From: Takakia lepidozioides
Taxonomy: Eukaryota; Plantae; Bryophyta
Direction of reading: 5' to 3'
DNA length: 64,000 nucleotides
NCBI GenBank assembly: GCA_030704615.1
Contig: CM060732.1
Coordinates: forward strand, 79,732,001-79,796,000
Part shown: in pieces, positions 921 through 43,589 of the stretch
How the letters are laid out: every line of letters begins with the position of its first letter
Numbering within the stretch: the first letter of the stretch is position 1
Notes under the pieces: model-generated
What the model was told of the DNA's origin: nothing
Seen by the model: the letters and a program-made list of their open reading frames with translations, nothing else
Database searches by the model: none
Translations under genes and position numbers: made by a program

Positions 921-1441
921 CTCAGTACCGTCGACCACTCCCCTGAATTCAGACCTCATTAAAAGCATTTCCATTTTGATAGACCAAATGGAATAATTGG
1001 TACTACTAAGGCGATCAATTTGATACGCCCTTGCTCCAGGAAAAGAGGGAGCAGCCATGGGGAATCTATGTCATTAGACAAGACCTAGCCAATGGCAGAG
1101 CATTTGCTCTTGCCCTTCTAATCCTTAACAACAAATTTCATAACAATTGAATAAGCACATGGTCCGAGGTCGCAAGATGTGACTTACAGTGACCATTTAA
1201 GATAAGCAATCTAGTATCAGGCTCTGATACCATGTTCTAAAATACTAGCACTCAAACATTAGTGTAGAGTGAGTATGATTACTCAATTTTATGTATGTAA
1301 GAATGAGAGAGAAGAAGACAGGACAATGTCTCTTCAACAACTCAACAGTCATACCCTAAAGGGTTGTGACTCTTGATATAGATGTGTCCATTCTATATGG
1401 ATGTTAACTTATATAATCTAAATGTTGAATTACATCCAACA
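921..1441 (-). mobile_element. Truncated LTR retrotransposon 5' end: 209-bp LTR (1233-1441) plus tRNA-iMet PBS, probably Copia or TRIM type
   Basis: Minus strand reads TGTTGGATG...TTTTAGAACA followed directly by TGGTATCAGAGC (plus strand gctctgatacca, 1221-1232). The same LTR recurs at 13289-13474. Confidence 0.85.
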
Positions 1442-1487
1442 AAGTCTTAATTGGAATCTGTTTGTATGAATCTTAATTGGAATCTGT

Positions 1488-1870
1488 TTAGTACTGTTGG
1501 ACTGGTAGAGGCCTGCTTTTATACCATGCGTCGGGCTTTGCCCACACCAAATTTAGTCTTAATTGGAATCTGTTTGTATGTCCATTTCTCTACTCAACTC
1601 GGATTATGTGTTGCGGGTGGAATTTAACTAACCTTTTGGTTTCCTTGTCTCTACCATCCGTGTCCTGTGCAGTTTTGATTTAATAAAGCTCTCCAAAGCA
1701 TTCTTCCAGTTACACAATTGAGCAGGCACAATTGCTTACTATGCAATAAAAAGCGAAGAAATTGGAAAGAAAATACAAAGCAAAAATTTGGAAAGAAGAA
1801 ACAGAGCAGTGCTGAGTCACCAAAGGGAAGGCTCCTTCCTACCGGCCTTCCTTAACTCGGGAGGAAAGTG
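1488..1870 (+). repeat. Direct duplicate of the eIF2-gamma 3' flank (copy of ~539-918)
   Basis: Near-identical sequence from gtactgttggactggtagagg to gaggaaag at both positions. Confidence 0.9.
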
Positions 1871-2103
1871 CCCTCAATCCAAGGAAGGCTCGTGGTGGGA
1901 AGATCTCACTGCCTTTGTTGACCAGTCGAAGCACTCAGACTTAGTGTTTGGTCGTTTATTCATCACCCAATCTTGGCCTTGTTTGCAGCTGGCAAGGATC
2001 TATAAGTTAGGGGGTTGATCACAGGGCAAATCATAGTGGTGGAGTGTTTGAAAGGGGTGCTCCAAGTAAGCAAATTTCAGTTGGTATCCCGCTTTCGGTT
2101 TGG

Positions 2104-2709
2104 ATGGCATCACCTGCCGGCGCCATCGCGTCTGATCGGGTGACACTTCGGAAATTCAGCATTGAGGATGTGAAGTACATGATGACATGGGCTGGAGACG
2201 ATGAAGTTACAGCAACAACCCCGCGTGAAACTCTTCAGTCTGAGGAAGAAATCCGTGAGTATTTCAGTTCTGTAATTGATCCCCATCCTTGGTTCAGAGC
2301 AATTTGTGTTGATGGCATTCCAGCAGGGTCCATTTTCCTTAGCATTGGTGAAGGAGTTCATTCTCTCCGGGCGGACTTGAGCTACCTCATTGCTAAAAAG
2401 TATTGGGGCCAAGGGATTACAACGCATGCGACGAAGATGGCTTTGTATGCGGGTTTCGAGGAATTGAAGTTGGCACGCATACAAGCTTATGCATTTGATA
2501 CAAACATTCCATCGCAAAGAGTGCTGGAGAAATGTGGTTTTCGAAGGGCAGTTCTACTCAACAATTTTATCATAAAGAGAGGCACTCTTCTGAATGTATT
2601 TATGTTTGATATCTGGGAAACTCCAGATGAGCACGGAGTGCCTCCGAGCCTTAGTGTACCCACCTGGTGCGGACCAATCAGTGTAGTGAAGAATACCAGG
2701 TTGAAGTGA
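2104..2709 (+). CDS. GNAT N-acetyltransferase, RimJ/RimL (Acetyltransf_3) type, intronless
   Basis: Motifs VTLRKF...WAGDDEV...HPWFRAIC...ADLSYLIAKKYWGQGITT...RIQAYAFDTNIPSQRVLEKCGF, including the acetyl-CoA binding WGQG. First in-frame ATG at 2104. Confidence 0.9.
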   Translation: MASPAGAIASDRVTLRKFSIEDVKYMMTWAGDDEVTATTPRETLQSEEEIREYFSSVIDPHPWFRAICVDGIPAGSIFLSIGEGVHSLRADLSYLIAKKYWGQGITTHATKMALYAGFEELKLARIQAYAFDTNIPSQRVLEKCGFRRAVLLNNFIIKRGTLLNVFMFDIWETPDEHGVPPSLSVPTWCGPISVVKNTRLK

Positions 2710-3082
2710 GTGGTAATCATCCAGACTCCAAAAAGGGAACTTTAATTAGTGCACATTACATGACACAAGATTTGTAGTGCAAAATAAAAGCTGCCTATTC
2801 CAGGACACCCAATCCCTTGTTGGCTGTTGTTGAAGGCCCCAGTTTGTTTCTTCCGGACACATTATAAAGTTTGTTGCAGCCTTGTTTGCTGGTTGGCTTC
2901 TAGAAGGATATGACGCTTTCATAACCCAGATTTTGTGTGGTAGGTTGCCGATGTGGGGCGTTGATGAGTTCAAAGATGAATATGTACACAAGTACTGAAG
3001 CTAGAAATATGCATGAATTTGAACTAACATCAGTTCTTTACCTTGCCGGACTCAGATGTATACTTAGATGCCATAGCAACCT

Positions 3083-4642
3083 TCAACAATGCGGCAGCAT
3101 AACAACATTGGGACCAATTTGAAGAATGACACAATTCTGAAGATTGCTGAATGAATGGCCACCCACATTGTTTGTGGAACCACGAACCTGGTAGTTGATT
3201 GGCCAATTCTTCTGCATCATCTGTTCTGCTTCCCGGAATATAGAATCCAGAAGATCGAAAAAAATTCTCCATATCAGATCAGGACACTTTAGATTTTCCC
3301 TTATCCACTTGAAGCGCTCCAGGAACCTCATCGAAAACAACGAGTGGAAGTGTTGCAGGTACTGTAGCCACAACATTTGAATGTGGAAATAATCCACCAA
3401 AAACCGGACACTCTGTAGGAACGACATTGGCCACCTGATGTTCTTGCAATTTCGCATAGGCACCGACCTCCTGCCAGTGAGCATCTTGGAATGTTGACCA
3501 AGAAATTTCACGCCACTAATAATCCGTTGAAATAGCACGATCTCTGAGCATTTTATCCACAGATTGTATTTCTCGTAACTTTCGGCATCCCTATGTCCGA
3601 TTATGTCCATTCCATATATGGTAGGAACACAGCCTTCCTACATCCGAGTAATTCCTGTCGTCCTGCCGCTCTTGTTTGTCAAAGTCTTCTCAGACAAGCC
3701 GGATAGTCATTCTCTTTGTAACGGTTGCAAGCATATTTTTGCCTATAGGACCTTTGGGATCTGTAGCCTTTCACTTTGAAAGCGCTGTCAAAAACAGTGG
3801 ATGAGGACCGGACTATCCAGGTGGCCAAGAAGGCCTACGAGAAATCATTTTCTCATACGTCTCGATGATGGCTGCAACTTGACAACCGACAGCTTTTCGA
3901 ATGTTGTTCACGCCGCATCTCGCAACATCAGCCTTTACAGTCTTCGAAAGACTGGCTATATCTCAGAACCTTTCCCATGACAGTGTGCTCGATGGAAAAA
4001 TCTTCAGTTCAGTCGCTGCTCTCATTTCAGAAACCGCTCTAATAAAGAAATTTCTTGTACAGTACCAGACGAATGTATAAGTCAAACCGGAAAGTGAAAT
4101 AGGTTGACACATATTGAGCCAACACAAGAGCTTCTTCGTCAAGCGTAAGACAATCAAATTTCTGCACTTTTTTTCCAAGGCCGGCTTTAAAAGACCTTGC
4201 CACAGCTTCGTCACCAGCCAACTTGATTCGTTGATATCTCATGTCATCCATAAGACTTATACAGAATTTTTCGCAAGGTTTGCTGGATTCAACGGCACAC
4301 TTATTGTAGTGAGCACAAATTATTCTGCCTACACCGCGTAAGAATGAATTAATACTCCCAAGAGGATATAGTGAGCCATCACGCTTCTTGGCATCAAGTA
4401 TAAAGCGAGCCAAAAGATCAACGATGTATCTAAGGTCCTCCTGTTCGGTTCCTCAATGGACAATGAGGTATCAATCTTATGCTCCACGCTCCATTCGACG
4501 TCAAGAGTGTTCCGCGACCAATTCTCGCCATGTTTATTTTGACGGCATCCTCTTTCATTTACAATCAGCATTTCATCCTTAGAAGTCAAAGAGCATCTGT
4601 TTCAACAAAACTTTTGTCATCAACGGTACTCTTTGTTAAAGA
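3083..4642 (-). pseudogene. Crypton-like (DUF3504-type) tyrosine recombinase, degenerate; 3' part
   Basis: Fragments FILDAKKRDGSLYPLGSINSFLRGVGR, FFIRAVSEMR (catalytic R), TNKSGRTTGITR (HxxR-like, ~3645-3680) and IIGHRDAESYEKY (GH...Y) occur in the correct order; frameshifts and stops are present. Confidence 0.72.
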
Positions 4643-7600
4643 TGTCAAGTTATTTTACCACTAGTGTGAAGTTAGTTAGGAAATAGCTAGCTTTTATATA
4701 TTGACATTTGGGATTATGCCAAGTGTCAATCCAGGGGCCAATACATGTTTGGGCACCTGACGTTGTTATCTTCACGGCAGATCGCGGTGGGCTCATCTTT
4801 TTCGAGTTGAGCCTCATCGTGTCTAGCTTTGGCGCCGTAGTGTGGATTCCCCATGGCGTGGGGTGCACTTGGCTCGACTTAATATATTAGTGATGTTTTC
4901 ATGTGCAAGTTTGAGAGAACTTGTGTGCTTGTATCATCTTCTTTTCCTTATTACTCGAGAAATATCAGTTCGAGTTTGTGAGTGCCAAGTTCGAGTTGGT
5001 TGTAGCACTTGTGTTTTTAGATCATGAGAAGCGGTTCAGCCTAGAGTGCAGGGATCCGTGCATGAGCCTATCCAAAGCGGATAGAGTGCAAAGGCGAACA
5101 TGTTGCAGGTTTGCAATGGATAGAGAGGTGGGTAGCCTATGTTGAAGAACGGCGTTGCATAGCTCAACGCTATGGCAACCAAGTTTGGGGTTCTAGTGTG
5201 AAGCGGAGGAGACGCTGGCCACGAGTGGGCGAACTGGTGGTCGTCTTCTTCAGCTACAGGCCGAGTTAAGGAGCTGCAGAAATGTGGGCTGCCCATGGGA
5301 AACTAGTGTGTTGCAGGTTGGAGATGATATGATCAGCTCCAAGTATTTCTGCCCGAAATCAGATTGTTGCCGATAGATGAGGAGCAGCTAAATGGTGGAG
5401 CTGCGAGGGGATGCATCGCACTCCGTTGGGAGCTTTAGCTCCAAGCTCATGAAAAGGTATGAGTGAAGAGAGGGGGCTGGTCCCTCTGGTGTGCAAATCA
5501 CTGCACTTGTGAAGCATGTGCTGAGTTGGAGTTTCAATCGAAACTCAGCAGTGTAAGGGCCCTTGGAGTGGCAAGAGCGGGGTTGGAAGGGTAGCAGCGA
5601 GGTGTCCTAGAGCCAGGGGATATGCATGAGAAGTGCATGTGCACCAAGTTTGTAAATGTGGGTATTTTCAGATTCGTTTTTGTGAGCTTTATGAAGAAAT
5701 GGAGCTTGAGGCAGCATATTGCTTGCTTGTTGAGTTTAGGGTGCCTCTGGTGGGTCGTGAGAGCCCAAGAGAGCATGGCAGCAAGCCTGGTGGCTTCGCA
5801 GAAGCCTTAGCTCGGCGGCAGCAGGGGCAGGAGCAAACCCAGCTCGGGAAGAGTTCGGGAACGTGTGGGAATGCATGGTAACTCGTTGGGAGTTCCAGGG
5901 CACGCAGGGAACAGCGGCCGTGATGGGCCGTGGGGGCGGTATCACGAGATACCACGAGCCCAGGCCGTGACTGTTGACCGTGACCGTTGACTGTGACCGT
6001 TGGAAGCCTTGGTGTTGACACAACGGGTGGGCACGGTGACCAGATCGTGGGGATGGCGGACCGTGAAGGCTCATGGGCGTGGTACCACGGGGTATCACGG
6101 GGCAGCCCGTGGCCAACGAGCGCTTAGGGCAGGTCGTGAGAGTCGTGGCGGTTGGAGCCACAGAAGGCCGCGAACAGTCAGAGTGAAATAATAATAATAA
6201 TTATTATTATTATTATGATTTTCACTCGTTTCGTGGGACCTTGATGGGGAGGCTGGGCTCTGAAGAACAATGGTTTTGAGCTAGCTGATCCGGCTGAAAA
6301 GTCGGAATTGCCTCCCTGTTGCGTTTTAACAAAGGGGATTACTTCCCTGCAGTTGCAGGTGCAGGCTCTGTTGGGAACCTAGTATTCCAAACCATAAGCC
6401 GCATCAGGTTCTCTACCCGGTTACCTTGTGGAGAGGGGGTTAGAGACAGGTTCATGACCGGTTGAGTGGCAGTTTGTCAACACGGAGGTGCCACTAGTTG
6501 CTGGGGAAAGTGCCGGTACGAGCACTAGCGATACTAGCGGGTATACGAGACGAGGTGTGCGGTTTAGGCCACCTTCACCTCCTGTGTCTTCTACGGAAGG
6601 TTCTGATTCGGATTGTGAATTAGGATGACTCACACCGGCGGTGCAAGTTCTTTCCTTGCCATTGTTGTGGGACACAATGGAGGAGATGTATGGAGCCACC
6701 AAGGGGCCACGAAGTTACTCGGGGGCGGTGGGCACCATTGAGTTGGATGATTTTATCCAAGAGTTTGATAGTTGATGTGACTTGCAGCAAATGCGCAATC
6801 CACAACTGTTTACGCTTTTCATGGCATGGAACGGGCTGTTTCAACACCTTGAGGGGCCGCCCATGGATGATTACCATGAGTTTAGGCAGGGGCGCGATGT
6901 TGAGATCGAGGAGTGGAGGATGTACTGGTCACCCGACTTTGTCTCCATCACTATAGGCACAAGGGCAGCAGCCACACCGGCAGCTGCAACAGCAGCTTCC
7001 ACGAGTAGTAGTTGGACTAGTGGTACAGCAACTACGACATCCACCCAAGCTACTGTTGCACCAGCACCAGTGGCGGTGTTTGCGTTCAACCCTGTTGTGG
7101 AGTTCTTCGAAGAGTTGAGAAGGAACTACCAGGGGGTGAGGACAGAGAAGTTGAGGAGCTTGCAAGAGTTCCAGAGAAAGCCTATTGAGAGCTTGATGGA
7201 GGCTTCCACTCGCATGAGGCGCTTGATAAATGTAACCCAAGGGGTTACGGAGGCTCAGGCAGTCCAATTCTGGTATGACATATTGGACAAGGAGCTGAGG
7301 AGAATGGTGCGGGATGCAACTCTCCTACAAGCGGCCCAACCCACCTTAGCAAATGTGTTTTTGCTGGCAGAGCGGATAGAGGTCAACATGGTGGAGGAAC
7401 GAGTGGTCATGGTGGGATTTGCTAAGGAGGCACCACGGGGTAGTGGTGCTCTTAGCCAGCCACTACCTCAACGTGCTCAAGGCAACAAGGGGGCTCAGGT
7501 GAAGCCTAGGGAAGGGCAGAGAGGACCTCAGATGCAGGGTCTCTCCCTTCATTTGCTGGCCAACAACGGGCGGATATGGTGTGCTAGTGGGAGGATAGAT

Positions 7601-8712
7601 CCCAACCTTGCAGTGGTACCTATAGGATTGCGTTGCATGCTATGTAGGCATGCTCGTTGTGCCGCCATTATGCTGGTGTGTGATCGATGCTCAAGAGGTT
7701 GTCACATGGGATGCTTGACACCACCTCTCGAGATGGTTCCTGATGGAGATTGGTTATATCCACACTGCTTGGGATAGTGGCAGTGGATATGACTAGTGGC
7801 CAGCAGCTAACAAGACATGGGAGGCCAAGCTCATAGGAGTCAATACCCGAGATCTCAGGCTCAAGTTCATAGGTTGCAAGACGGCGACTAACGATGGGGC
7901 AACGATTGTACCCGGCCTCTTGATCTATCGAGTTTGAGTGTAGTAGAGACAGTGGTGGAGGACTTAGTGAGGCTATGGTCACTATCACATCTTGTGGCTA
8001 CCTGGACTTAGAGGGACCTAAGCGCCAGCTAGGGGGACGATTGTGATGGACTAGTGGATGCACTAATGGTGGCTAGTGGCAGCCTAGTGGTGGACTAGTG
8101 GCTGCACTAGTGGTGCACTAGTGATGGACTAGTGATAGACTAGTGTTTGGTGTGCACATGTGTTGTGTGGTTTTGAACAGCGATGTAGTTTGTAGCGATA
8201 TGTATGCGCACGACAGCTGTCAAGTTATTTTACCATTAGTGTGAAGTTAGCTAGGAAATAACTAGCTTTTATATATTGACATTTGGGATTGACCCAAGTG
8301 TCAATCCAAAGGCCAATACATGTTTGGGCACCTGGCGTTGTTATCGTCACGGCAGATCGCGGTGGGCTCATCTTTCTCGAGTTGAGCCTCACCGCGTCTA
8401 GCTATGGCGCCGTAGTGTGGATTCCCCATGGCATGGGCTGCACTTGGCTCGACTTAATATATGAGTGATGTTTTCATGTGCAAGTATGCGAGTTTGAGAG
8501 AACTTGTGTGCTTGTATCATCTGCATTTCCTTATCTATTGTGATGGACTAGTGGCAGCCTAGTGGTGGACTAGTGGCTGCACTAGCGGTGACTAGTGGTT
8601 GTCTAGTGGCAACCTAGTGGTGCACTAGTGATAGACTAGTGTTTGGTGTGCACATGTGTTGTGTGGTTTTGGACAACGATGTAGTTGTGTAGCGATATGT
8701 ATGTGCACGACA
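4643..8712 (+). mobile_element. Complete, internally deleted gypsy-type retroelement with split direct repeats (SDR copy 1): A1 4643-~4951, B1 8040-8215, GC, A2 8218-~8534, B2 8537-8712
   Basis: Termini TGTCA...CGACA; 4-bp TSD AAGA (4639-4642 and 8713-8716); A and B repeats are directly visible; purine tract agggggacga precedes B1; encodes Gag and PHD. Confidence 0.9.
6782..7777 (+). CDS. Gag-like ORF fused in frame to the integrase C-terminal PHD finger (pol deleted)
   Basis: Retrotransposon gag-like block (FFEELRRNYQG...LQEFQRKPIES...AVQFWYDILDKELR) joined to GRIDPNLAVVP-C-x2-C...LVCDRCSRGCHMGCLTPPL..VPDGDW, which is the PHD seen after integrase in the other copies. Confidence 0.8.
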   Translation: MQQMRNPQLFTLFMAWNGLFQHLEGPPMDDYHEFRQGRDVEIEEWRMYWSPDFVSITIGTRAAATPAAATAASTSSSWTSGTATTTSTQATVAPAPVAVFAFNPVVEFFEELRRNYQGVRTEKLRSLQEFQRKPIESLMEASTRMRRLINVTQGVTEAQAVQFWYDILDKELRRMVRDATLLQAAQPTLANVFLLAERIEVNMVEERVVMVGFAKEAPRGSGALSQPLPQRAQGNKGAQVKPREGQRGPQMQGLSLHLLANNGRIWCASGRIDPNLAVVPIGLRCMLCRHARCAAIMLVCDRCSRGCHMGCLTPPLEMVPDGDWLYPHCLG

Positions 8713-8716
8713 AAGA

Positions 8717-9272
8717 TTTCAAAGAACCTGTGGAGAGGGAGGTATTTGGAAATGCAACTTCTGAAACTAGAACAGCAGGAGATTTATTCTCATCAGGTTC
8801 ACCAAATTTATCAGCAATGTCATCATCAACCTCGTACAAAAAAATGTGCGTGATATGGGCCACAAGAACCACATGTGTAACTCCTCCGAAATCTCAATTA
8901 GAGGAACAAGCCGGCGCATTAGAATCCAACTCTAGTACCATATCTTCAATATTGAAAACCTAAGGAGAACTCACAATAGCGGAATCATCAAATTCCAAAT
9001 CAGATAATGAATATTACGGAATTGAATCAGCCACAACATCAGCAACATCATCCTCATCTTCTCCACTTTAAGCCCTGGGAGACTCAATCGCGACAAAAGC
9101 TTTGACGCCTGATACGCAACAAAAACGGAAATAACACATAGAAAAGCGGGCACTGAGTATAGAATGAGCGCCAACCCCTGGTCGAAAAGATCCGGAAGGC
9201 GGAAAGAAATCTTCCACGTGCTTTATGCAGAGGAAGGCCTCTTAGGTCGGGGGTTCTTGGATTTTCGGGCAT
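8717..9272 (-). pseudogene. 5' part of the same Crypton-like gene, separated by the retroelement insertion
   Basis: Removing 4643-8716 rejoins ...STGSLKSL to TKSTVDDKSFVE... in frame. The upstream limit is uncertain. Confidence 0.55.
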
Positions 9273-9900: not shown

Positions 9901-11988
9901 TGTCAAGTTATTTCACCACTAGTGTGAAACTAGCTAGGAAATAGCTAGCTTTTACATGTTGACATTTGGGATTGGCCCAAGTGCCAATCCAGGGGTCAAG
10001 GCAGATTTAGGCCCCGGAGTGGTTATCTTCACGGCAAGCGCGGGAGGCTCATCTTTCTCGAGTTGAGCCTCACCGCGTCTAGCTATGGCGCCATAGTGTG
10101 GATTCCCCATGGCGTGGGGTGCACTTGGCTTGACTTGTATTTGAGTGATGAGTTTATATATACATGAGTTTATGCTTCAGCTTTGTGAGTTCGCATGACC
10201 TTGTGCTTGTATTCTTCTTGTTTATCACGGGTTTGTCACTCGAGAAAGATGAGCTCGTATCTGTGAGTGCCAGATATGAGTTAGTTGTAGCACTTGTGGT
10301 TTTTGTTTGAGAATGAGAGAAACTTTCAGCCCATTGAAGGCTTGTACTTTTAGGTTTGGGAGTGCAAGAAAAGAAGGAAGGGGCTAGTTTCCCTGTAGGG
10401 CATGTGTGGAGCATGCTTTCAGCCCGCTGAAGCTTGTATTTTCAGATTTGTGGGTGCAAGTAAGGAAGCAAAGGAGCTGATTTCTCTTATGTGGGAGTAG
10501 TGCATGTGTGGAGCATGCATTCAGCCTAGTTAGGCCTCCATCTTTAAGCTTTGGAGAGCTAGAAGGGAAGGTAATGGGCTGATCTGCTCTTATGTGACAG
10601 TCCGGCACTTGTAGAGCGTGTTTTGAGTTGGGGTTTCAACTACAAGCCTAGATAGAGCATGGCTCTTGAAGCGGCAGGTGTAGGGGGCTGGAATAGGCTC
10701 TAAGACACGTGCTATGGCCAAGGAGAGCGCATGAATAAGTGCTCACAAGGGCTAGAAACCAGCAAGGCTCGGTTGTTTGCCATTGAGTTGAGTGGCGGGG
10801 TTTTTGGAGTCTAAGTGAGAAAGAGAGCTTGGTTTGTGGCAAGCATCTTCCTCATGACTTAGAGCTTTTGTTGGTGGTGTATGGGAGTTGAAAAGAGCAA
10901 GAAGACATTGCAGATTTCTTCACAGCTACCATAGCTCGTTGCAAGAGAGCTCAAGGTTCAAGAGACACAAACCCTAGCTTGGTGTGGCTGAACTCCCTTG
11001 GAGAAATGGCTAAACTGCCATGAGCGGACATGGATGGGGCTGTGATGGGCTGTGACAGGCTGTGGCCTTTAGGGCTATGACGGGCTGTGGCCTATGGGCC
11101 TGTGACAAGATGTGATTGGCTGTGACCTGTGGCCTGTGGGGCTGTGGTGGGCTGTGACAGGCTGTGGCCTATGGGGCTATGACGGACTGTGGGGCTGTGA
11201 TGGGCTGTGATGGATGTGACCTGTGGGGCTGTGACCGGTTGTGGCCTGTGGGGCTGTGATGGGCTGTGTCATGTGGCCTGTGTGGGGCTGTGAGGGCTTG
11301 ACATGTAATCTGTATGGGCCTGTGCTGGTCTGTGGTGGCCCGTGTTGACCTTTGGACGGCCTGGGCTGACCCGTGGAAGCATTGATGGACTGCCTGAGAA
11401 CTAGTATGTGGTCTTGAAGGCCAAATTTCGAAGCTCATGGAGGGCGGTTTGAGGAGTATCTTCATGATATTCCCATGGTCATACAAGTGAGGGAAGAGAG
11501 GAGAGGAAGAGTGTTGGGATGAGGGCATGTTGGGGTTAGGCATTGCTTTAGCTTCTCTTCCTCGTAGTTTTTCACCCTCTCATTAGGCCAAGACCTTTCC
11601 GTAGGTGGAGGCAAGAGTCAGTCCGGGTTTGGGCTGGGGTGTCCTTACAGGAGCGACACCGTGGAGTTGTTTTTGGTGTGGAAGAGTTGTCGTTCTGATT
11701 TCTTGAATCCCCTCCACACCTGCATGCTTGACTGTGCGCCACGTTAGTTTTGTGTGGACGCTTGTTTTTATAGGTGATTGGTCCGGATTTGATCGCCGGT
11801 CAGTCCTAGAGCGTGATGTCGATGGTGAGGCTGGGGTGATGACCAGTCAGACCATCATTAATTCTCATGTGGTGAGGTTGGAGGTGATGACCAGCCAACC
11901 ATATGAGTGCTTGCGGGGGATGTAGGTGCAGGTGCAGGCTATGTTAGGAACTTAGTATTCCAAACCATAATCCGCAACAAGCTCTCTA
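9901..11988 (+). mobile_element. 5' part of another SDR retroelement (A1 plus long 5' leader), truncated
   Basis: Starts TGTCAAGTTATTT, and its A repeat matches 13664-13990 in reverse complement. The leader ends in gtgcaggct...agtattccaaaccataa, as at ~6360-6400. Confidence 0.85.
11035..11345 (+). repeat. Degenerate GGGCTGTGA/GGCCTGTG minisatellite in the retroelement leader
   Basis: Many tandem 8-10 bp units; a related ccgtgg/ccgtga-rich tract occurs at ~5915-6150 in copy 1. Confidence 0.85.
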
Positions 11989-13474: not shown

Positions 13475-16239
13475 TGTCGTGCGCATACATATCGCTACAC
13501 AACTATATTGTTGTCCAAAGCCAAACAACATGTGTGCACACCACACACTAGTATACCACTAATCCACCACTAGTCCAACCACTAGTCTAACCACTAGGCT
13601 ACAACTAGTCAGTCACTAGGCTGCCACTATGCTGCCCACTATGGCAGTCACTAGTCCACCCAATGATAAAGAAGAATAATACAAGCACAAGCTCATGCGA
13701 GCTCACAAAGCTGAAGCATAAACTCATGCATATATAACCTCATCACTCAAATACAAGTCAAGCCAAGTGCACCCTACGCCATGGGGAATCCACACTACGG
13801 CGCCATAGCTAGGCGCGGTGAGGCTCAACTCGAGAAAGATGAGCCTCCCGCGCTTGCCGTGAAGATAACCACTCCAGGGCCTAAATCTGCCTTGACCCCT
13901 GGATTGACACTTGGGCCAATCCCAAATGTCAATATATAAAAGCTAGCTATTTCCTAGCTAGTTTCACACTAGTGGTAAAATAACTTGACAGCTGTTGTGC
14001 GCATACATATCGCTACACAACTATATCGCTGTCCAAAACCACACAACACATATGCATACCACACACTAGTATACCACTAGTCCACCACTACTCCAACCAC
14101 TACTCCAACCACTAGGCTACAACTAGTCAGTCACTAGGCTGCCACTATGCTGCCCACTATGGCAGTCACTAGTCCACACAATTGCCCTCCTAGCTGGTGC
14201 TTAGGTCCCTTTAAGTCCAGGTAGCCACAAGATGTGATAGTGACCATAGCCTCACTAAGTCCTCCACCATTGTCCCTACTACACTCAAACTCAATAGATC
14301 AAGAGGCCGGGTGCAAGAGTTGCCCCATCGTTAGTCGCCGTCTTGCAACCTGTGAACTTGAGCCTGGGATCTCATGTATTGACTCCTATGAGCTTGGCCT
14401 CCCATGTCTTGTTAGCTGCCTCTAGTCATGTCCACTGCACTATCCCAAGCAGTATGGACATAACCAATCTCCATCAGGAACCTTCTCAAGAGGTGGTGTC
14501 AAGCATCCCATATGCCAACCTCTTGAGCATCGATCACACACCAGCATGGTGGCTGCTCCTTTGGTAGACCCACAAAGCATGCACCTCAAACCTGCAGGTA
14601 CCACTGCCAAGTTTGGGTCAACTCTGCCATCGACATTGGGAAGGTGACATGGCGCACAATTACACACATGGTCTTTCCAAGTTATGCCATCCCGACCCTC
14701 CAAGATCATGACTCCTGAGGGCAATACCTCTGGAACCCTCAGAATAACACGCCCTGCAGTGACATCCAGGGTCGTAGGAGCAGTCTGCTGCAAATAAACA
14801 TAGTCACTAGGGCTAAACCTCTGAACCCCAGGACGATATCCTCCACCACGTATAGTGGCATACCTCAACGTATCACGGTGCTATGCAATGGCAAGGTTCT
14901 CAAAAGCCATGGGCATGACTTTCTTGAACAACTCTGTACGCTGATCACATGCACGTACCCACACGTCCGGATCGTCAAGGTTAAGGACTCGAGTAGTGTT
15001 CCTACGAATGGCTGCAGGAAATTCCAGCTCTCGGCCAAAGAGAAGGAAATATGGTGAGAAAGAGGCAAGTGATGCTTGTTTGCAGAACCTGTAGCCCGTG
15101 GCTAACCAAGACACCTGAAGATCCCAATCTCCTAGTGTCTCTTCTGCAAGCCATACTTGCTCAAACCCCTCTTCACCGTCTGAACAACTCTCTCTGCCAA
15201 GCCATCGGCCTCAAGATGATCCCGAGAAGTGGTGCGGTGGTCTATCAAGGCTTTATCACACAAAACCTAAAACTCCCCCAAGAACTCTCTCCCTTGGTCC
15301 GTGAGTACCTCAGTTGGAGCACCAAATCGGCTAAGCACACGATCCAAGAATGCATACGCAGCCCCCTCACTAGCCTTGTCAGGCAATGGAACCAACTCAA
15401 TCCACTTGGAGAAGTGCTCCACCATCACCAACACATATCTGTGGTGGCGCATAGTTAGTGGCAACGGTCCTGCGAAGTCAAGACTCCACCTGTAGCCCAA
15501 TCCCATGATTGGTAAAGGATGCAACCATGGTGTAGGGGCGTTGAATGAAGCACGCACCCTGTCACACACCATGCACCTAGCCACAAACTGTTGCACCTCT
15601 ATATGCATACCACGCCACCAATACTGCCCCTACAGTAAACTGTGAGTGCGTCGCACTCCAAAATGCCCCAACTCCTCATAGACATGCCACACCAAATGTG
15701 CACGCTGTCTGGGGTGAGGCACAATCCTCACCCGACCATTCTCCCATACTCGGAGCAAGTGTATCCCCTCCCACTTGAACCTCTTGGCTCGTTGTAGGAT
15801 CCGATCCCTCTCCTTGGCAGTCACAGTGGTTGTCGTGTCTCCAGTATGGAGATAGTCCAACACAGCCGAATCCTCATGTATATCTCTAGTACCACCTGGC
15901 TCATCACTAGCCTCAGGGTCCTCAGACACTCCGTCTACAGTCATCCCTGTTGTAGGTCCAACTTCACCTCCCGATGCCAAGATACACAAAAAGACAGATG
16001 CATGCCATCCCGACACTATCTCCTCGTCTGTCTCACCATGCCACCGAGCTCCAGTGTCATCCTGTTGGCTCGTGCATGGATTGCGACTCAATCCATCCGC
16101 ATCCTGATTGACCAAACCCGGTCGATGCACCACCTGAAAGTCATACTCTTGGAGTATGAATGCCCACCGTGCAAGCTTCCCCGTAAGCTTGTCTGACTCC
16201 ATCAACCACTTGAGTGGCTGGTGATCCGTGACAAGGGTG
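13475..16239 (-). mobile_element. 3' part of SDR retroelement copy 2: RNase H end, DDE integrase, PHD, then B1 (13993-~14182), GC, A2 (~13664-13990), B2 (13475-~13663)
   Basis: ORFs 15630-16205 (KLARWAFILQEYDF, HVYEELGHFG), 15267-15608 (CMVC, WSLDFAGPLP, LTDQGREF) and 14440-14868 (PHD). Plus-strand junction TTGACA-GC-TGTTG at 13985-13997. Confidence 0.9.
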
Positions 16240-18670: not shown

Positions 18671-19104
18671 TTTTACTGCCTTGTCAGATCCAAAACATGA
18701 TTCATTCCAATGGCATGGTATGTGAACATTGTGCTTCATATGAAGATTCAATAAATAAAATTACTAGCAAGTTGTATCGAGTATGGTAGAGTACAAGTTT
18801 GGCCCATGTTCGATGCGACCCATTTGTTTATCATGATCCTGCAATGAAATTTTACTTTATTCGACTTCCAAGTGGACGTTCAATGAATTGTTCAATACTG
18901 CTACTTCACATTGAGCACTTCAATGTCAAATGGACCTCTTATATGACACATTTTGAAACAAGTATGACATCACCTAAAATTTCACAAAGTTCAATCACAC
19001 ATTACACCATGATATTATTAATATTTCAATTAATTTTAATACGAATATATATTAAGTTTAGTCCAGATTTAAGCCAAAAATCCAGAATTAAAATAGTGTT
19101 TTTA

Positions 19105-19790
19105 TCACCCGAGAAAGATTAGCTCGTATCTATGAGTGCTAGATACGAGTTAGTTGTTAGCATTTGTGTGTTTTCAGATGAGAAGCAACTCAACTTAGAG
19201 TGCAGGGATCAGTGCATGAACCTATCCAAAGTGGATAGGATGCGATGGCGAACAGGTTTCAGGTTTGCAATGGATATAGAGGCGGCAGCCTGTGTTGAAG
19301 AGCAGTGTTGCATAGCTCAACGTTATGGCAGCCAAGTGTGGTGAGTGTGGAGCTGCGAGGGTGTTTGATGCCAGTCACAGTTATCGGGAGCTCCAACTTC
19401 AAGCTCATAAGGAGGTATGAGTGGAGAGATGGCTGATTTCTCTTGTATGCAAGCCAATATTGCATTTGTGGCTATGTTGAGTTGGGGGTGTCAATCTGAA
19501 ACTCCAGCGGTATGAGGGCTCTTGCCATGGCAAGAGCAGGGCTGGAACAGGAGCTAAGAGGTGCGGCAAGGCCATGGAATGTGCACCTAGGGTTTCAGAG
19601 CTTGGAAGAAAAGCTCTTGCACCACAAGAGGAGTGTCTTGTGGCTGGAAATGTAAACCTTAGGGTTTGAGGAGCTTGGCAAATGTTGTGGAGTGCTTAGT
19701 CTTGTCTTAGAGAGCATCAAGGAACCAAAGAGCCAAGATAGGGGGCTGATATTACCTCTTGTGTGAAGGGGATGCATGTGTTAAGCATGC
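19105..19790 (+). mobile_element. Internal leader fragment of an SDR retroelement
   Basis: Similar to 4955-5190 and 5395-5620, and to 10238-10320. Confidence 0.7.
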
Positions 19791-33911: not shown

Positions 33912-35377
33912 TGTTGGAAACTAGACCTGCCCTCTAGTTCCTGGAGATATTGACAGATAGCTTCTAGCACAAACAGCAGTACAAAAACTGACAGCTTAAA
34001 CCAACCAAAGAGTTAGTACTAACAAGAAGTGTCAGTCCTAACAAGAATGCTCCTTACTGCAAAAGAAAAGACTTACAAAAGTAGATGCTGGACTTCTCCT
34101 CCTCATCTCTCTGCAATCTACTAGGATAGCACATCCAAAATGCTAGAAGAAGTGTTGGGCATTGCCTCAGCGTTTCCCTTAAATCCTACATGAGTTCTCT
34201 AGAAACTTCTGGTGGAACCATGGGCTGGAACCTTCTGGTAGAACTATCCCTAGCCGTCAAAAACCCTAACAGAACCCTAACTAAATCTGAGCTGACTTCT
34301 AACACTCCCGCTCAGCGAGGAATGAGGCTTAACCCAATCAGTTCCATGCATCTAGAATGCTTTTCTTTGGATAGAGCCCTTGTGAGTGCATCAGCTGCCA
34401 TGTCCTCAGTCCTACAGAAAACCAACTCAATCTCCAAACCAATCATTTCTCTAATGAAATGATGTTTGATATCTATGTGCTTGGTCCGGGCATGATGAAC
34501 AGGATTCTTGCTCAGCTCAATGCTGCTCCTTGTTATCAGCATGCAATTTCGTTGGTTGTTCTTGACTGAAGCCAAGTTCACCAAGAAGCCTTCCAATCCA
34601 AATGGCTTCTTTAGCTGCATGAGTCAGAGCCATATACTCTGATTCAGTCGAGGATAGAGTAGTGGTCTGTTGTCTTTTGCTGCTCCAGCTCACAACACCT
34701 CCACTCATTACAAAGCAGTAGGCAGATATGGATCTCCTCGCATCTGTGTCTCCTACCCAATCTGCATCACTGTATCTTTCTAGTGATGCTCCAGTGTTAT
34801 ACTTGTTATAAGTTAGACATGTATCCGCAGTCCCTTTTAAATATCTAATCACCCTCTTGAGTGTTTTCCAATGTTGAGGTCCTGGGTTGTGCATGAACTT
34901 ACTGAGCACTCCCACTGCATAGGCATTGCCTGCCCTGGTGCCAATCATTGCATACATCAGAGATCCCATGGCTTGCTGATATGGAACCTTAGCCATTTCC
35001 TCAATCTCACTTGGAGATTTTGGCTCCAGTTCTTTACTCAGCTTGCAGCTAGCCGGTTTCCAATGGTGTTGGTGCTGGTTTGCAGTCCTGCATACCAAAC
35101 TTTGCAACAACATTCCTGACATACCTCTCTTGGCTCAACTTTATAGTTCTCACCTTCTTGTCCCTCGGAATCTGAATTCCAAGTAGGTAATTCATGGCTC
35201 CAATATCAACCATCTCAAAGGTTTCACTCAAATCATGCTTTTGTCTACGCATGGTGTCCTTGTTGTCGCTGATCAGTAGCAGGTCATCCACATAGACTGC
35301 TATTATCATGACACCTGATGTCATGTAGTAAATGCTTTGATCAGCTGTACTCCTAACAAAACCTTGGCCTGTCAAGT
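33912..35377 (-). mobile_element. Ty1/copia retrotransposon 3' part: RT end, RNase H, PPT (34305-34314) and 393-bp 3' LTR (33912-34304)
   Basis: Motifs AVYVDDLL, YSDADW, SSTESEY, HARTKHIDIKHHF and ADALT. LTR TGTT...AACA is preceded on the minus strand by TGAGCGGGAG. Confidence 0.93.
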
Positions 35378-38300
35378 TTTCATGCACCTAAGCATCGTGC
35401 CACAACATACATCGCTGTCCAACCACACTTCCTAGCATATAGTCCTAGAAGGCCACGCCACAATGATACGAAAATGGTGAAAAGAGGAGAAACCACTCTA
35501 TCACGTTATATAAGTCAAGCCAATGGCACCTTTGCTAAAGGACTCCACCATACAAACCTCACCCACTCTTCATCTCAAGTACTAGAGCTATGGCGGCGAG
35601 AGAGGCCTTGGGAGGCTCGACTAGAAGAAGACAAGCATGCCTACGTCTCACGTGGAGATAACCTCTCCACGTCCCAAGTGAGGTTCGCCACCTCATTTGG
35701 TACATGGAACCAAATGAAGTCCCAATGCCAACAAAATACAAATATAAATATATAATGTCCTAATTAGTTATAAGTAACTATTTCTAACTAATCACAAACA
35801 AAACCATGACAGCTGTCGTGCACCTAAGCATCGTGCCACAACATACATCGTTGTCCAACCACACATCCTAGCATATAGTCCTAGAAAGCCACGCCACAAT
35901 CGCCCCCCCAGTTGGTGATTAGGTCCCTCTAACACTAGATAGCTTGCAAGTATCCACCCCAATAAGATCATCGCTTGGTCTTCAATCGCACAAGTCCCAA
36001 CACCTGAAGTCGATAGATCAAGAGGCCGGGTGCAAACGTAGCCCCATCGTTAGTCGCCTTCATGCAATCCATGATCTTCAGTTGAGTATCCATGGCATTG
36101 AAGCCCCACTAGCTAGACCTTGGATCACTTGTCCGCCTCACCATTGTCATGCCCACTACCTCTATCCAAGGCATCGTGGACACAACCATTCTCCGATAGG
36201 AACCTTCTCAAGTGGCGGTGTCAAGCATCGCATGTGCCACCCCCTTGAGCATTTGTCACACACCAACATGGTTGCGGCGCCACCAGCATGCCCACATAGC
36301 ATGCAACACAACCCTGCAGGTACCACTGCAAGGTTGGGATCTATCTTCTCATCCACATATGGAAGGTGACATGGCGCACAATTGCGCACATGGTCCTTCC
36401 ATACCATGCCATCTCGACCCTCCAGAATCAACACTCCTGAAGGCAACACGTCCCTGACCCTTAGGATCACACGTCCTGCTGTGACATCCAAGGTCGTAGA
36501 CGCTGTCTGCTGCAGATACACATAGACCCCAGGGTAGAAACGCCGAACATTTGGCCCCTCCACGTATAGTGGTGTACCTCAATGTATCTTGGTGTTGGGC
36601 AATAGTAAGGTTCTCAAAAGCCATAGGCACGACTCTCTTAAACAACTCTGCCCGCTGGGCACATGCTTGTGTCCACACATCCGGATCATCAAGGTTGAGA
36701 ACTATTGCAGCCTCCCTGCGAATAGATGCAGGCAAATTTGGCTCTCGATCAAAGAGAAGAAAATAAGGTGAGAAGGAGGCAAGTGAAGCTTGTTTGCTGA
36801 ACCTATAGCCCATAGCTAGCCAAGGCAGCTGAAGGTCCCAATCTCCTAGGTGTCCCTTCTGCAAACCGTACTTGCGCAAAACTCTCTTTGACTGTCTGAA
36901 CAACTCTCTCTGCCAAACCATCAGCCTCGGGATGATCCGGAGAAGTAGTACGGTGATCGCTCACACAAAGCCCGAAACTCGCCCAAGAACTCTCTCCCCT
37001 GGTCCGTGAGTACCTCGGCTGGAGCACCAAAATGGCTAAGCACTCGATCTAAGAATGCATACGTAGTCCCCTCACTTGCGTTGTCAGGCAATGCCACCAG
37101 TTCAATCCATTTGGAGAAGTGTTCCACCATCACCAGCACATACTTGTTATGGCGAATCGTCAATGGCAATGGGCCTGCGAAGTCAAGACTCCAACGATAG
37201 CCCAAACCCATAATAGGTAAAGGATGTAATTGTGGAGTAGGGGCATTGAAAGAAGCCCGCACTCTATCACACCACATGCACCTTCCCACTAACTGTTGCA
37301 CATCTGTGTGCATACCCCGCCACCAATACTGCCCTTGCAACAAACTATGAGTACGCCGCACCCCAAAAAGTCCCAACTTCTCATGGGCATGGCGTACCAA
37401 TCGCGCTCGTTGTGTTGGATGAGGCACAATCCTCACTCATCCATCCTCCCATACCCGGAGTATGTGAGTCCCCTCCCACTTGAACCTCTTAGCTTGTTGT
37501 AGGACCCGATCTCTCTCATTAGCAGTCACACTGACTGCTGTCTCTCCGGTACGAAGGTATGCCAACACCGCTACATCTTCATGCACATCTTTAGCACCAT
37601 CAAACTCCTCACTAGTATCTGGATCGTCATGCATGCTATCTACATGACTAATCAGATGGGCTGGACCAGCTTGAGTTCCCATTGCTAGAATGCACAAAAA
37701 GGCCGATGCATGCCATCATGGCACCATCTCCTCATCCGTCTCACCATGCCACCGAGCTCCAGTATCATCATGCTCGCTCCTGCATGGATACGACTCAATC
37801 CATCTGCATCCCAATTGACAATATCGGCTCGATGCACCACCTGAAAGTCGTACTCTTGAAGCATAAGTGCCCACCATGTAAGCTTCCCTGTAAGCATGTT
37901 TGACTTCATCAACCACTTCAATGGTTGGTGATCCGTGACAAGGGTGAAGAGATTGCCATAGAGGTAGCATCTGAAATGTGCCACTGCCCATACCGCAGCT
38001 AGACACTCCCCTCCATAGGAACTATACTTCGCCTCGGCATCATTGTTCGAGCGGCTAGCATTTGCCACTATGAACTCTCTTCCCTCATCATCCACCTGCG
38101 TGAGCACTGCTCCAATCCCCAGCATACTCCAATCCGTATGTAGCTGGAAAAGCCGCCCCCGAATAGGCCGCCTCAGAATAGGTGCAGACGTCAATCGAGC
38201 CTTGAGGTCCTCAAAGGCTTCCTCCTACTCCTCCTCCCACTGCCACTCCTGACCCACCTTGGTTAACTTGGTAAGAGCCTTTGCAATGATGCTAAATCCC

Positions 38301-38520
38301 TTGACAAACCGTCGATAGTAGTTTGTCAATCCCATGAAAGCACGAATTCTGCTCACATCCATGGGGCGTGGAATGCATGCAATGGCCTCCACCTTTGTCT
38401 GTTGAACACCCAATCTTCCAGGGTATATCATGTGGCCAAGATACTATTGTGGAAGAACTTGCACTTTTCGGGGTGCAGTTTCAACCCGTGCGCTCAAACA
38501 CCACCTGAAGGTGTCTCTCA
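35378..38520 (-). mobile_element. 3' part of an SDR retroelement of a second family (RT end, RNase H, DDE integrase, PHD; B1 35814-35900, GC, A2 ~35465-35811, B2 35378-35464), inserted in the Copia RT
   Basis: Motifs RAFMGLTNYYRRFV, LHTDWS...GIGAVL, VTDHQPL, WSLDFAGP, TDQGREF and PHD. An 87-bp B repeat occurs twice; junction ATGACA-GC-TGTCG at 35806-35818. Confidence 0.9.
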
Positions 38521-38699
38521 TGCGGGGAGTGCTTGCGCGTGAGCTTGGCCACGTGAGTCTGTGAGCATGTGAGCATGTGAGCCTGGCTAGGCTCACGCCA
38601 CATCAGCAAGCATCCACGTATGCAGGCCCTAATTCCGTGCCCCCCCCCCCCCCCCCAATTACCGCAGATCGGTTGTCGCCATTGTACATTTTTTTCTTT

Positions 38700-43064: not shown

Positions 43065-43589
43065 CTATGGATTGGCTGACCTCAAACCCACTCCTCTGCA
43101 GCGCAAGTGCCAAAAACTGAAAAGGAGAGGGACAGAATGTCCTCATAACATGTAAGCCCATTCATTGGTGAAGAAACAGAATGTGGGCGGGTTCACATCA
43201 GTACCACATGAAACTTACCAGGAAACAGAACATCCATCCGGGTTTTGCACATATCCAGTGGACATCTATTCACACAATCAGCAAATGGCTGTATGGCGGA
43301 GCCCAGCAACGGAGCCCCAAAAGGCCTAAAGACTCTCAATGTTGGTAAACACAGGTGCAGACACAATTCAATTGAAAGGATATTGCAGACCTAGCCTCGT
43401 TGGAGTTATCAACGCATATAGCAAATGCGTACTCCAACGCAGGTGCAATGACGTGACAAAGCAACATTTCCTTGACCTAAAAACTAGTCCCTCTGCACAC
43501 AGTGGTAGACCTGAAGGTTTTTCCACGATGTCCTCCCCCATGACACAAATTGAAAACATGTTCAGGGATGTTTTCTGCCTAACTTCATT

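Follow-up and report, generated by a model that had tools for sequence, protein, structure and literature searches.

Results

Architecture of copy 1 and of the other copies in the window

The window (the whole 64-kb stretch of DNA analysed here) carries at 4643-8712 an old, internally deleted member of a green-plant Ty3/gypsy family, copy 1, which is ordered A1-leader-gag/PHD-PPT-B1-GC-A2-B2, begins with TGTCA and finishes with CGACA (Table 1). A first-pass annotation had proposed this split-repeat layout, and the coordinates of A1, B1, GC, A2 and B2 bear it out, as do the terminal motifs seen at 4643 and 8712. As it had stated, no B follows A1 in copy 1; nor does one in copy 4 at 9901. The same B1-GC-A2-B2 end that it had reported elsewhere was found at 13475-14181 and 35378-35899, both on the minus strand. 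Copy 3 belongs to a family other than that of copy 1, and its last CA reads AA. The A2 of copy 1 is one base longer at the B2 joint than those of copies 2 and 3. Within copy 1 the A pair and the B pair have diverged alike (0.068 and 0.071), and the order of tandem units differs between the 5' halves of B1 and B2. A1 of copy 1 presumably holds the promoter, R and U5. In run X1, 19 contigs with unrelated flanks stop exactly at the copy-2 base homologous to the start of A1, and in run X5 the PBS motif recurs as a loose end at the end of A. Summed contig depth over the family exceeded the depth of the flanks roughly a thousandfold, a value that is not usable as a copy number.

Copy 1 is non-autonomous, since its protease (PR), DNMT, reverse transcriptase (RT), RNase H (RH) and integrase core are deleted. 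Its stop-to-stop frame matched only ORF1 226-324 (27%) and Pol 974-1034 (54%) of the intact relative L029. No Pfam family was found in the copy 1 leader or in the flank protein at 4042-4452, and no tRNA gene was found in the window. The RNase H, HHCC zinc finger, rve core and PHD that had been read in copies 2 and 3 are present in both, but the RT attributed to copy 3 is its C-terminal end only, running from about residue 264 of L029 Pol and without the YIDD motif (L029 position 235).

Table 1. Features of copy 1 and of the other copies in the window
Feature	Position	Strand	Evidence
Left target-site duplication AAGA, copy 1	4639..4642	+	sequence; empty-site contigs skipping 4074 bases
A1, copy 1; TGTCA = left integration end	4643..~4952	+	93% substitution identity to A2 (p=0.068)
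Likely self-primer (transcript 5' end), decayed in copy 1	4795..4807	+	11/13 complementary to 13 bases after A1, shuffle p=0.014
Likely self-priming PBS, adjoining A1 3' end	4953..4965	+	complementarity to site within A
Long non-coding leader, copy 1	4966..6675	+	resembles 10232-11988 and 19101-19563
Stop-to-stop frame: gag-like part in-frame with integrase tail and PHD finger	6776..7777	+	PHD E=3.4e-6
Polypurine tract (PPT) right before B1	8031..8039	+	sequence; G-rich tract at same place in most relatives
B1, copy 1; starts at PPT, ends CGACA	8041..8215	+	repeat comparison
Palindrome GACA-GC-TGTC, putative integrase cut site; spacer GC 8216-8217	8212..8221	.	2-bp spacer in 22/23 relative loci
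A2, copy 1; final base abuts B2	8218..8537	+	joint of two primer-defined ends
B2, copy 1; CGACA = right integration end	8538..8712	+	repeat comparison
Right target-site duplication AAGA, copy 1	8713..8716	+	sequence; empty-site contigs
Copy 4: A1, perfect 17-bp primer/PBS pair (10047-10063 / 10238-10254), leader; 3' part missing	9901..11988	+	repeat and complementarity comparison
Copy 2, 5'-truncated: RNase H end, integrase, PHD, PPT, B1 13993-14181, GC, A2 13664-13990, B2 13475-13663	13475..16239	-	repeats and domains
Fragment: last bases of A, PBS, leader	19101..19563	+	similarity to copy 1 leader
Copy 3, second family, 5'-truncated: RT C-terminal end, RNase H, integrase, PHD, PPT, B1 35814-35899, GC, A2 35463-35811, B2 35378-35463	35378..38540	-	repeats and domains

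Target-site duplication and empty site

Empty-site contigs were recovered in three of four runs, X1 and X3 being from one sample and X5 from another. In them 4638 is followed directly by 8713, with the 4074 bases between (4070 + 4) absent, which confirms the 4-bp target-site duplication (TSD) AAGA claimed for copy 1. The reading-frame proof offered with that claim is weak: with a 4-bp TSD the frame stays free of stops over 77 aa across the empty site, versus 60-67 aa with 0, 3 or 5 bp, and frame restoration was rejected as a convincing test. Taken alone, copy 1 also fits a 5-bp TSD; for the relative L035 (AAGG/AAGG), 4 bp together with TG..CA is the only parse that fits. A 4-bp TSD was present in 3/3 scorable A..B-A-B copies and in 2/4 A..B copies, L065 having none and L018 matching at only 3 of 4 bases. 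The TSDs recorded were AAGA, CATA, AAGG, ACTA and TACA.

Layouts and joints in relatives

Among 80 relative loci, 15 had no A or B match to the repeat library and were left out of the counts, and L014 had A only. The B-A-B end was found in 18 of 47 distinct relative loci, in addition to the two further window copies. Single-B groups numbered 23, of which 19 were counted after dropping L020 and L044 (interrupted) and L024 and L070 (contig ends); the 5' end is visible in only four of these 19. L006 and L008 are a single locus in two assemblies. Two of the 15 loci set aside, L027 and L029, show by eye a PPT-like tract and the junction motif. L029 reads internal-PPT-B-GT-A-PBS-leader, and its contig breaks in the leader repeats and is likely collapsed.

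The first-pass annotation had named variable spacers as a result that would speak against its reading. All but one of 23 relative loci had a 2-bp spacer, and it was GC or its transitions in 20 of these 22. The A2|B2 joint was a length-exact fusion of the PBS-side and PPT-side ends in seven of nine distinct family-1 loci; the other two (L007 and L023) have PPT-like extra bases, and the family-2 joints are too decayed for scoring. No indel at 2% or more was listed at the joint or the spacer among 8165 X1 contigs. The base common to both sides of the joint is A, A and G in three families. Of 20 loci in which the 3' end of A2 is present, none had a complete A2 running into the flank, and the mirror form A-B-GC-A-internal-B was intact at none of 11 visible 5' ends. 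Every copy with scorable ends is decayed.

Single-B forms make up a larger share of the younger family (17:8 versus 2:10, p=0.005), which fits an origin of this form at insertion. In family 2, B1 and B2 within one element differ less than those of different elements (0.163 versus 0.226; 0/20000 permutations) and share subfamily variants over their whole length, 5' halves included; the same test of concerted evolution in family 1 was not significant (0.083 versus 0.091, p=0.14). The L006/L008 locus reads A2-PBS-inverted A(1-180) and terminates at TGACA, the end that would result from a plus strand that had folded back on its primer site and been cut at the internal site. Sequence identity is no test of this fold-back, since the inverted piece resembles its own A2 (166/176) no more than it resembles other copies. 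The viral contigs held no protein relative, and their four junction-pattern matches, all without a match to L029 proteins, were taken as chance. A search of the genome contig collection gave 0 matches.

A likely self-priming site after A

The first-pass annotation saw no tRNA PBS after A1. The 13 bases there are indeed not tRNA-PBS-like, but they likely form a Tf1-type self-priming PBS, as judged by their complementarity to a site inside A. Across 12 ends this complementarity was 13/13 in three, 12/13 in two, 11/13 in two and 10/13 in five, copy 4 standing at 13/13; it was better than shuffles (p<=0.03) in seven and no better than shuffles in the other five. The best match fell at the homologous site within A in 10 of 12 ends, and the sequence of the primer/PBS pair differs in each of four families. 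The predicted transcript start is 4795 in copy 1 and 10051 in copy 4. In three relative families (L018, L065 and L029) the predicted start is preceded, at a distance of 29 bases, by TATAAA or TATAAT; the window family has TTATCTT at -28/-29, which is not a canonical TATA. Contigs of runs X7 and X8, guessed to be RNA, cannot show a transcript start or end.

Proteins encoded by the relatives

The relatives encode PR-DNMT-RT-RH-HHCC/DD35E integrase-PHD. In L029 these are divided over two ORFs (PR, DNMT / RT, RH, H2C2, rve, PHD), with a D752..E787 spacing of 35. Among PDB entries, Ty3 Gag-Pol gave the best match to the relative P0014 (E 2e-94). The polyproteins of L016, L035 and L029 include a C5 methyltransferase, which was found in 27 of 80 relative loci; every window copy has lost the corresponding part by deletion or truncation. 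The earlier observation that there is no tyrosine recombinase holds in 52 window ORFs and in 77 ORFs of the window copies and three relatives, and PF00589 is absent from the precomputed domains among the listed homologues (120 and 55). No chromodomain match was found in the ORFs of the window copies and three relatives. Homologues were recorded from Marchantia, Calypogeia, Sphagnum, Coleochaete, Klebsormidium and chlorophytes. In an integrase tree of 29 rows with one distant outgroup, the window copies group with Calypogeia (98/91), and the K. nitens row, which is not known to represent KnitGypsy-Dnmt3, forms a long branch of unresolved position. A K. nitens integrase-PHD protein, P0116, is a homologue and may be a KnitGypsy-Dnmt3 product.

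Discussion

Comparison with known systems

The family has the PR-RT-RH-IN order, Ty3-type RT, HHCC and DD35E integrase, TG..CA ends and 4-6 bp TSD of Ty3/gypsy elements (Metaviridae), but in place of two full direct LTRs it has A alone at the left and B-GC-A-B or B at the right. It is thus Gypsy by its proteins and non-canonical by its ends. The layout itself is not new, since the Fig. 4 legend of de Mendoza et al. 2018 (PMC5890265) gives KnitGypsy-Dnmt3 of Klebsormidium nitens DIRS-type repeats with Gypsy domains, the DIRS order being written there as A-coding-B-A-B. That element shares with our family the combination of Gypsy domains and A..B-A-B repeats and, with L016, L035 and L029, the C5 methyltransferase in the polyprotein. 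The available portion of that account is silent on TSDs, termini, a PBS, junctions and mechanism, and its main text has no PHD. A published mechanism for the layout was not found in the literature searched.

The look-alikes named in the first-pass annotation fail to match, Selgy in PBS and domains and Troyka in ends and TSD. Compared by description, Selgy shares the 4-bp TSD and is set apart by the self-complementary PBS and the PHD, being reported with a tRNA-Ala PBS, paired LTRs and no extra polyprotein domain (PMC6317226). Phygy, also compared by description, has a tRNA-Trp PBS, an NCGN TSD and no extra domain (PMC6317226), and is set apart by TSDs none of which is NCGN. Troyka is described with CG..CG ends, a 3-bp TSD and an occurrence in animals only (PMC12440569); on that description it is ruled out by TG..CA ends, 4-bp TSDs and green-plant homologues. 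Closer in priming are Tf1/sushi elements, in which, according to a review, the 5' bases of the transcript are complementary to a PBS right after the left repeat (PMC7175516), and plant Tcn1; with both, our family shares a self-priming PBS (here by sequence), PPT priming and RT-RH-IN order (PMC7175516; PMC6317226). Tcn1 differs in having paired LTRs, 5-bp TSDs and a chromodomain (PMC6317226). The window family differs from Tf1 and Tcn1 in its permuted repeats, 4-bp TSD, PHD-finger tail and predicted primer of 13-14 rather than 11 bases.

Proposed mechanism and its rivals

The A2|B2 joint fuses a PBS-side end to a PPT-side end, which suggests that the LTR of reverse transcription is likely B-GC-A. 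Because the joint lies exactly at two primer-defined ends, the repeats are better read as one internally opened LTR, and the inserted copies likely begin and end mid-way through the true terminal repeat. We consider it fairly probable that the insert is a circular permutation of a two-LTR cDNA (LTR = B-GC-A), likely circularised and likely reopened by the DDE integrase at GACA-GC-TGTC. Transcription would start inside A1, about 29 bases after a TATA box, and the first 13-14 bases of the transcript would pair with the PBS after A1 and, as in Tf1, be cleaved off to serve as primer. Once the minus strand had been transferred to A2 and the plus strand primed at the PPT, the linear cDNA would end with the start of B on the PPT side and with the end of A on the PBS side. 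Fusion of these ends would produce the observed A2|B2 joint with its one base in common, which could be a 1-nt cohesive overhang. Plain host end-joining is expected to be less precise than this joint, a point against the proposed fusion. Integrase would nick both strands after CA in CA-GC-TG, leaving 2-nt GC overhangs, with the duplex GACAGCTGTC as its predicted substrate; the final insert has the TG..CA ends and 4-bp TSD observed here. One-LTR circles, cut likewise, would yield the frequent A-internal-PPT-B form. The biochemical precedent is the integrase of prototype foamy virus, which cuts both strands of a palindromic junction after CA so that a 2-nt 5' overhang remains (Delelis et al. 2005, PMC1180852). 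In that virus the two LTRs meet at the palindrome and the provirus keeps normal LTRs (PMC1180852), whereas in the window family the palindrome is internal to the inferred LTR and the insert retains the LTR-LTR joint.

Since a two-LTR circle has two identical cut sites, the mirror form should also occur; its absence from the 11 visible 5' ends is unexplained and counts against a free circle. Both this absence and the single shared joint base are accounted for if no circle is freed: integrase would cut only the left internal site of a linear two-LTR cDNA, and the freed B piece would be joined to the right end within the complex. Either this or a jump of reverse transcriptase from end to end via the shared base would give the same product as the reopened circle. 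This reading is compatible with all the priming evidence, but a precedent was not found in the literature consulted and the left and right sites are indistinguishable in sequence within at least 85 bases; we regard it as rather improbable. Templating of the Ngaro/PAT type with the enzyme swapped, in which RNA would run from A1 to B2, the joint would be inherited through RNA, and B1-GC-A2 would template a circle junction cut by the DDE integrase, is unlikely but deserves more weight. It yields only the observed orientation (0/11 mirror forms) and a precise joint, its repeat order is that described for Ngaro, PAT, VIPER and TATE (PMC6681497), and the differing tandem-unit order in the B1 and B2 5' halves of copy 1 is in its favour. 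However, it needs neither the PBS after A1 nor the PPT before B1, and both are kept, with the joint exactly on them in three families; subfamily variants are common to B1 and B2 in the 5' halves too, two joints carry PPT-like extra bases, and the RT is nearest to Ty3 among solved structures. The window family further differs from Ngaro, PAT, VIPER and TATE in that no tyrosine recombinase was found and a DDE integrase, TG..CA ends, 4-bp TSD, PPT and PBS are present. That ordinary LTR elements were rearranged after insertion, nested or misassembled is very improbable and already largely refuted: an ordinary LTR would also give the L029 arrangement, though the L029 contig is likely collapsed, but the order is identical in three window copies from two families as well as 18 distinct relative loci, TSDs lie on either side of A1..B2, the 2-bp spacer is fixed and the empty site was recovered.

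Of the hybrid replication system inferred in the first-pass annotation, insertion by a DDE integrase stands, given the TG..CA ends, the 4-bp TSDs, DD35E and the failure to find a tyrosine recombinase; the central place of a circle-type B-GC-A junction is likewise supported. Its end rebuilding of the Ngaro/PAT type is less supported, since both LTR-type priming signals are kept, the PPT before B1 and the likely PBS after A1.

Implications

Two-LTR circles are usually regarded as side products. Foamy-virus work argues against that view (PMC1180852), and a natural family whose complete inserts resemble a reopened circle would make the question testable with a defined 10-bp substrate. Marchantia is a possible test host, provided that its copies have the same layout. 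On balance, we lean towards a green-plant-wide Ty3/gypsy lineage in which replication ends are uncoupled from integration ends, the attachment site has moved inside the LTR, and a circular or end-rejoined cDNA cut by a DDE integrase is obligatory for a replication-competent copy. Such a lineage would be invisible to LTR-finding programs, and surveys such as the one behind REXdb would miss it because they require paired LTRs. The finding suggests a route by which split direct repeats arise from an LTR; if true, it would represent a distinct replication mode among LTR retroelements, with DIRS-like split repeats derivable from an LTR.

Layout of the split-repeat elements

Copy 1, a Gypsy-type element, begins with TGTCA and ends with CGACA. 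Self-comparison of the window and direct reading bore out the order A1..B1-GC-A2-B2 described in the first-pass annotation, with A and B as split repeats. AAGA was read directly on both sides. Empty-site contigs from three of four sequencing runs (two of the three being one sample) joined 4638 to 8713, skipping 4074 bases, the element plus 4, which confirms the proposed 4-bp TSD. The reading-frame argument originally offered for it is weak alone (77 aa versus 60-67 aa for other TSD lengths). The reported recurrence of the same 3' end was confirmed in copies 2 and 3.

A metagenome scan matched at least 600 stretches, of which 548 were confirmed, and the best 80 loci were used. B was present in 64 of these, forming 47 flank groups with the 3' forms B-A-B (18), B-A (5), A-B (1) and B only (23); intact B was followed by flank in 19 of the 23 B-only groups. 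Within the same 80 loci, the spacer was 2 bp in 22 of 23 and, in 20 of those 22, GC or transitions of it, the decay expected in a methylated CAG/CTG context; a complete A2 directly before flank was found in 0 of 20. All three scorable A..B-A-B copies had a 4-bp TSD (AAGA, CATA, AAGG), as did two of four A..B copies, with three of four bases matching in relative L018 and no match in L065.

A1/A2 and B1/B2 differed by 0.068-0.074 inside one element and like repeats by 0.107-0.145 between elements, except for copies 2 and 4 (0.043). In family 2 (10 loci), an element's own B1 and B2 were closer than random pairs (0.163 versus 0.226; 0 of 20000 permutations) and had common variants in both halves, while the family 1 test (7 loci) was not significant (p=0.14).

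Features of the window, relative loci (L) and homologous proteins (P)
Location	Position	Strand	Feature
Copy 1	4643-8712		A1, leader, gag/PHD, PPT, B1 8041-8215, GC, A2 8218-8537, B2 8538-8712
Copy 2	13475-16239	minus	3' end as in copy 1
Copy 3	35378-38540	minus	Second family; 3' end as in copy 1; core CGACA-GC-TGTCA kept
Copy 4	9901		A1 and leader only
Window	3000-4640, 8713-8890	minus	Decayed coding region, target of copy 1; not part of element
Window	4042-4452	minus	Frame beside copy 1 without Pfam match; presumably resembles N-terminal part of Crypton-type proteins
Window; L035	10044-10071; 1836-1858		Hairpin in A overlapping predicted primer
Window	2011-2709	plus	GNAT acetyltransferase frame (Acetyltransf_3, E 1e-21)
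Window	20703-21155		DUF7869 frame
Window	~34300-35370		Copia-like RT/RNase H remnant adjoining copy 3 (by eye)
Window	43330-43812		Another RT fragment
Window	46787-50675	plus	CACTA-type transposase remains (Transposase_21, DUF4218, DUF4216)
L006; L008	3361-3878; 1412-1929		Fold-back-like locus: A2, PBS, inverted A(1-180), TGACA end
L007; L060/L064	~1590-2415; after A2 position 172		Another element inserted in B2 and A2 of two relatives; own ends similar, TGTCGC start
L049 = L057	1541-1817 = 3321-3602		One locus: PHD end joined to A position 177, then exact A|B joint
L029 ORF 1			Protease, C5 methyltransferase
L029 ORF 2			RT, RNase H, integrase (D752..E787), PHD
L029	5083-5085		Lone in-frame TAG between both long ORFs
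L016; L035; L029; 24 more of best 80 loci	6075-6683; 5627-6094; 976-5082		C5 DNA methyltransferase in Gypsy polyprotein
P0176-P0210 (Marchantia)			C5 DNA methyltransferase in Gypsy polyprotein

Coding capacity

Copies 2 and 3 encode RNase H, an HHCC finger, an rve core and a PHD finger; the RT reported for copy 3 is present, but only its C-terminal end is kept. In copy 1 an internal deletion has brought the integrase tail and PHD together with a gag-like part, and this copy is therefore non-autonomous. The reported lack of a tyrosine recombinase held, no such family being matched in the 52 plus 77 ORFs scanned. The best match of the relative P0014 among solved structures was Ty3 Gag-Pol. The integrase tail had 130 homologues; those named among the 120 matches listed were from Marchantia, Calypogeia, Sphagnum, Coleochaete, Klebsormidium, Pleodorina, Haematococcus and Cymbomonas. 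An integrase tree built from 29 rows places the window copies in one group with a Calypogeia sequence (98/91), and this suggests that the host is of bryophyte type. L029 seems to be intact and would suit biochemical work; the lone stop between its two ORFs suggests read-through or a separate Pol start.

Self-priming signal and A2|B2 joint

The first-pass annotation saw no tRNA primer-binding site (PBS) after A1, missing a predicted self-priming PBS of 13 bases complementary to a site inside A. Across 12 ends, 13 of 13 bases paired in 3, 12 in 2, 11 in 2 and 10 in 5; a shuffle test gave p<=0.03 in 7 and was not significant in 5. Copy 4 has a perfect 17-bp pair between these regions, and each of four families has its own sequence of the pair, with pairing kept. 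Tf1 primes itself by pairing its first 11 bases with the PBS, the primer being freed by RNase H (PMC7175516, in part), and the A/PBS complementarity matches this mode of self-priming. Three relative families (L018, L065, L029) have a TATA box, decayed in some copies, 29 bases upstream of the predicted first base; the window family reads TTATCTT at this place. In each family A contains a hairpin that overlaps the predicted primer; in three families its 5' arm is upstream of the predicted start, so that this hairpin would occur only in A2 transcripts or DNA.

The start of B adjoins the polypurine tract (PPT) and the end of A adjoins the PBS. A2|B2 is an exact fusion of these two ends with one base in common (A, A and G in three families). 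In the window, copies 2 and 3 show it with exact length and copy 1 with one additional base. It is length-exact in 7 of 9 family-1 loci, the other two having PPT-like extra bases. Among 8165 contigs of sequencing run X1 aligned to copy 2, no indels of at least 2% were listed at joint or spacer, and in 19 with unrelated flanks the end was exactly the first base of A.

Proposed replication route

In the simplest reading, ordinary reverse transcription would give two LTRs, each B-GC-A, the ends of this product would be joined, and integrase would open it at the palindrome GACA-GC-TGTC inside the left LTR. Such a cut would yield A-internal-PPT-B-GC-A-B with TG..CA ends. Joint, ends and TSD were observed directly, and we infer the priming, circle and integrase cutting; RNA start, cDNA and circle are predictions from sequence. 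Foamy-virus integrase cuts both strands of a palindromic junction, leaving a 2-nt 5' overhang (PMC1180852, in part), so the proposed chemistry has a precedent. The putative cut site, CAGCTG, is a double CHG site, and methylation might thus distinguish the two cut sites. L006/L008, one locus in two assemblies and a single event, likely arose by fold-back during reverse transcription; its end is the one expected after cleavage at the internal site. At L049/L057, A position 177 is near the predicted primer cut, and the join may reflect aberrant strand transfer or later deletion.

Single-B copies fit an origin from one-LTR circles and make up a larger share of the younger family (p=0.005); B1xB2 recombination or assembly collapse would leave the same sequence. 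The mirror form A-B-GC-A-internal-B was seen at 0 of 11 visible 5' ends, though expected from a free two-LTR circle, in a test that is small because the 5' end is visible in only 4 of 19 single-B loci. Host end-joining is expected to be less precise than the A2|B2 joint, which counts against the proposed route. An ordinary LTR is an alternative in the family of L029, whose order B-GT-A-PBS-leader is what such an LTR would give, but its contig is likely collapsed.

Comparison with known elements

Troyka elements, known from animals only, have CG..CG ends and 3-bp TSDs (PMC12440569, in part), in contrast to TG..CA and 4 bp here. Selgy and Phygy, as the accessible text of PMC6317226 describes them, use tRNA primers and carry no extra domain, whereas the window elements have a predicted self-priming PBS and PHD. 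These features set the window elements apart from all three. Tcn1 self-primes (same text), as the window elements are predicted to, but it carries a chromodomain and 5-bp TSDs. The repeat order is the same in Ngaro, PAT, VIPER and TATE, which differ in encoding a tyrosine recombinase (PMC6681497, in part), a family not matched in the ORFs scanned here. The closest known case is KnitGypsy-Dnmt3, with repeats of a DIRS element and Gypsy domains according to the Fig. 4c legend of PMC5890265, and the layout itself is therefore already known; the accessible portion of a 2025 follow-up (PMC12344493) adds nothing further on repeats. No account of the self-priming signal, primer-end joint, internal palindrome or TSD was found in the literature searched; subscription papers, Repbase Reports and further figures may hold more.

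The observed layout is real, and the proposed replication route is testable and possibly distinct. The C5 methyltransferase of moss-like and liverwort relatives, found in 27 of the best 80 relative loci and in Marchantia proteins, extends the Klebsormidium case to land plants.
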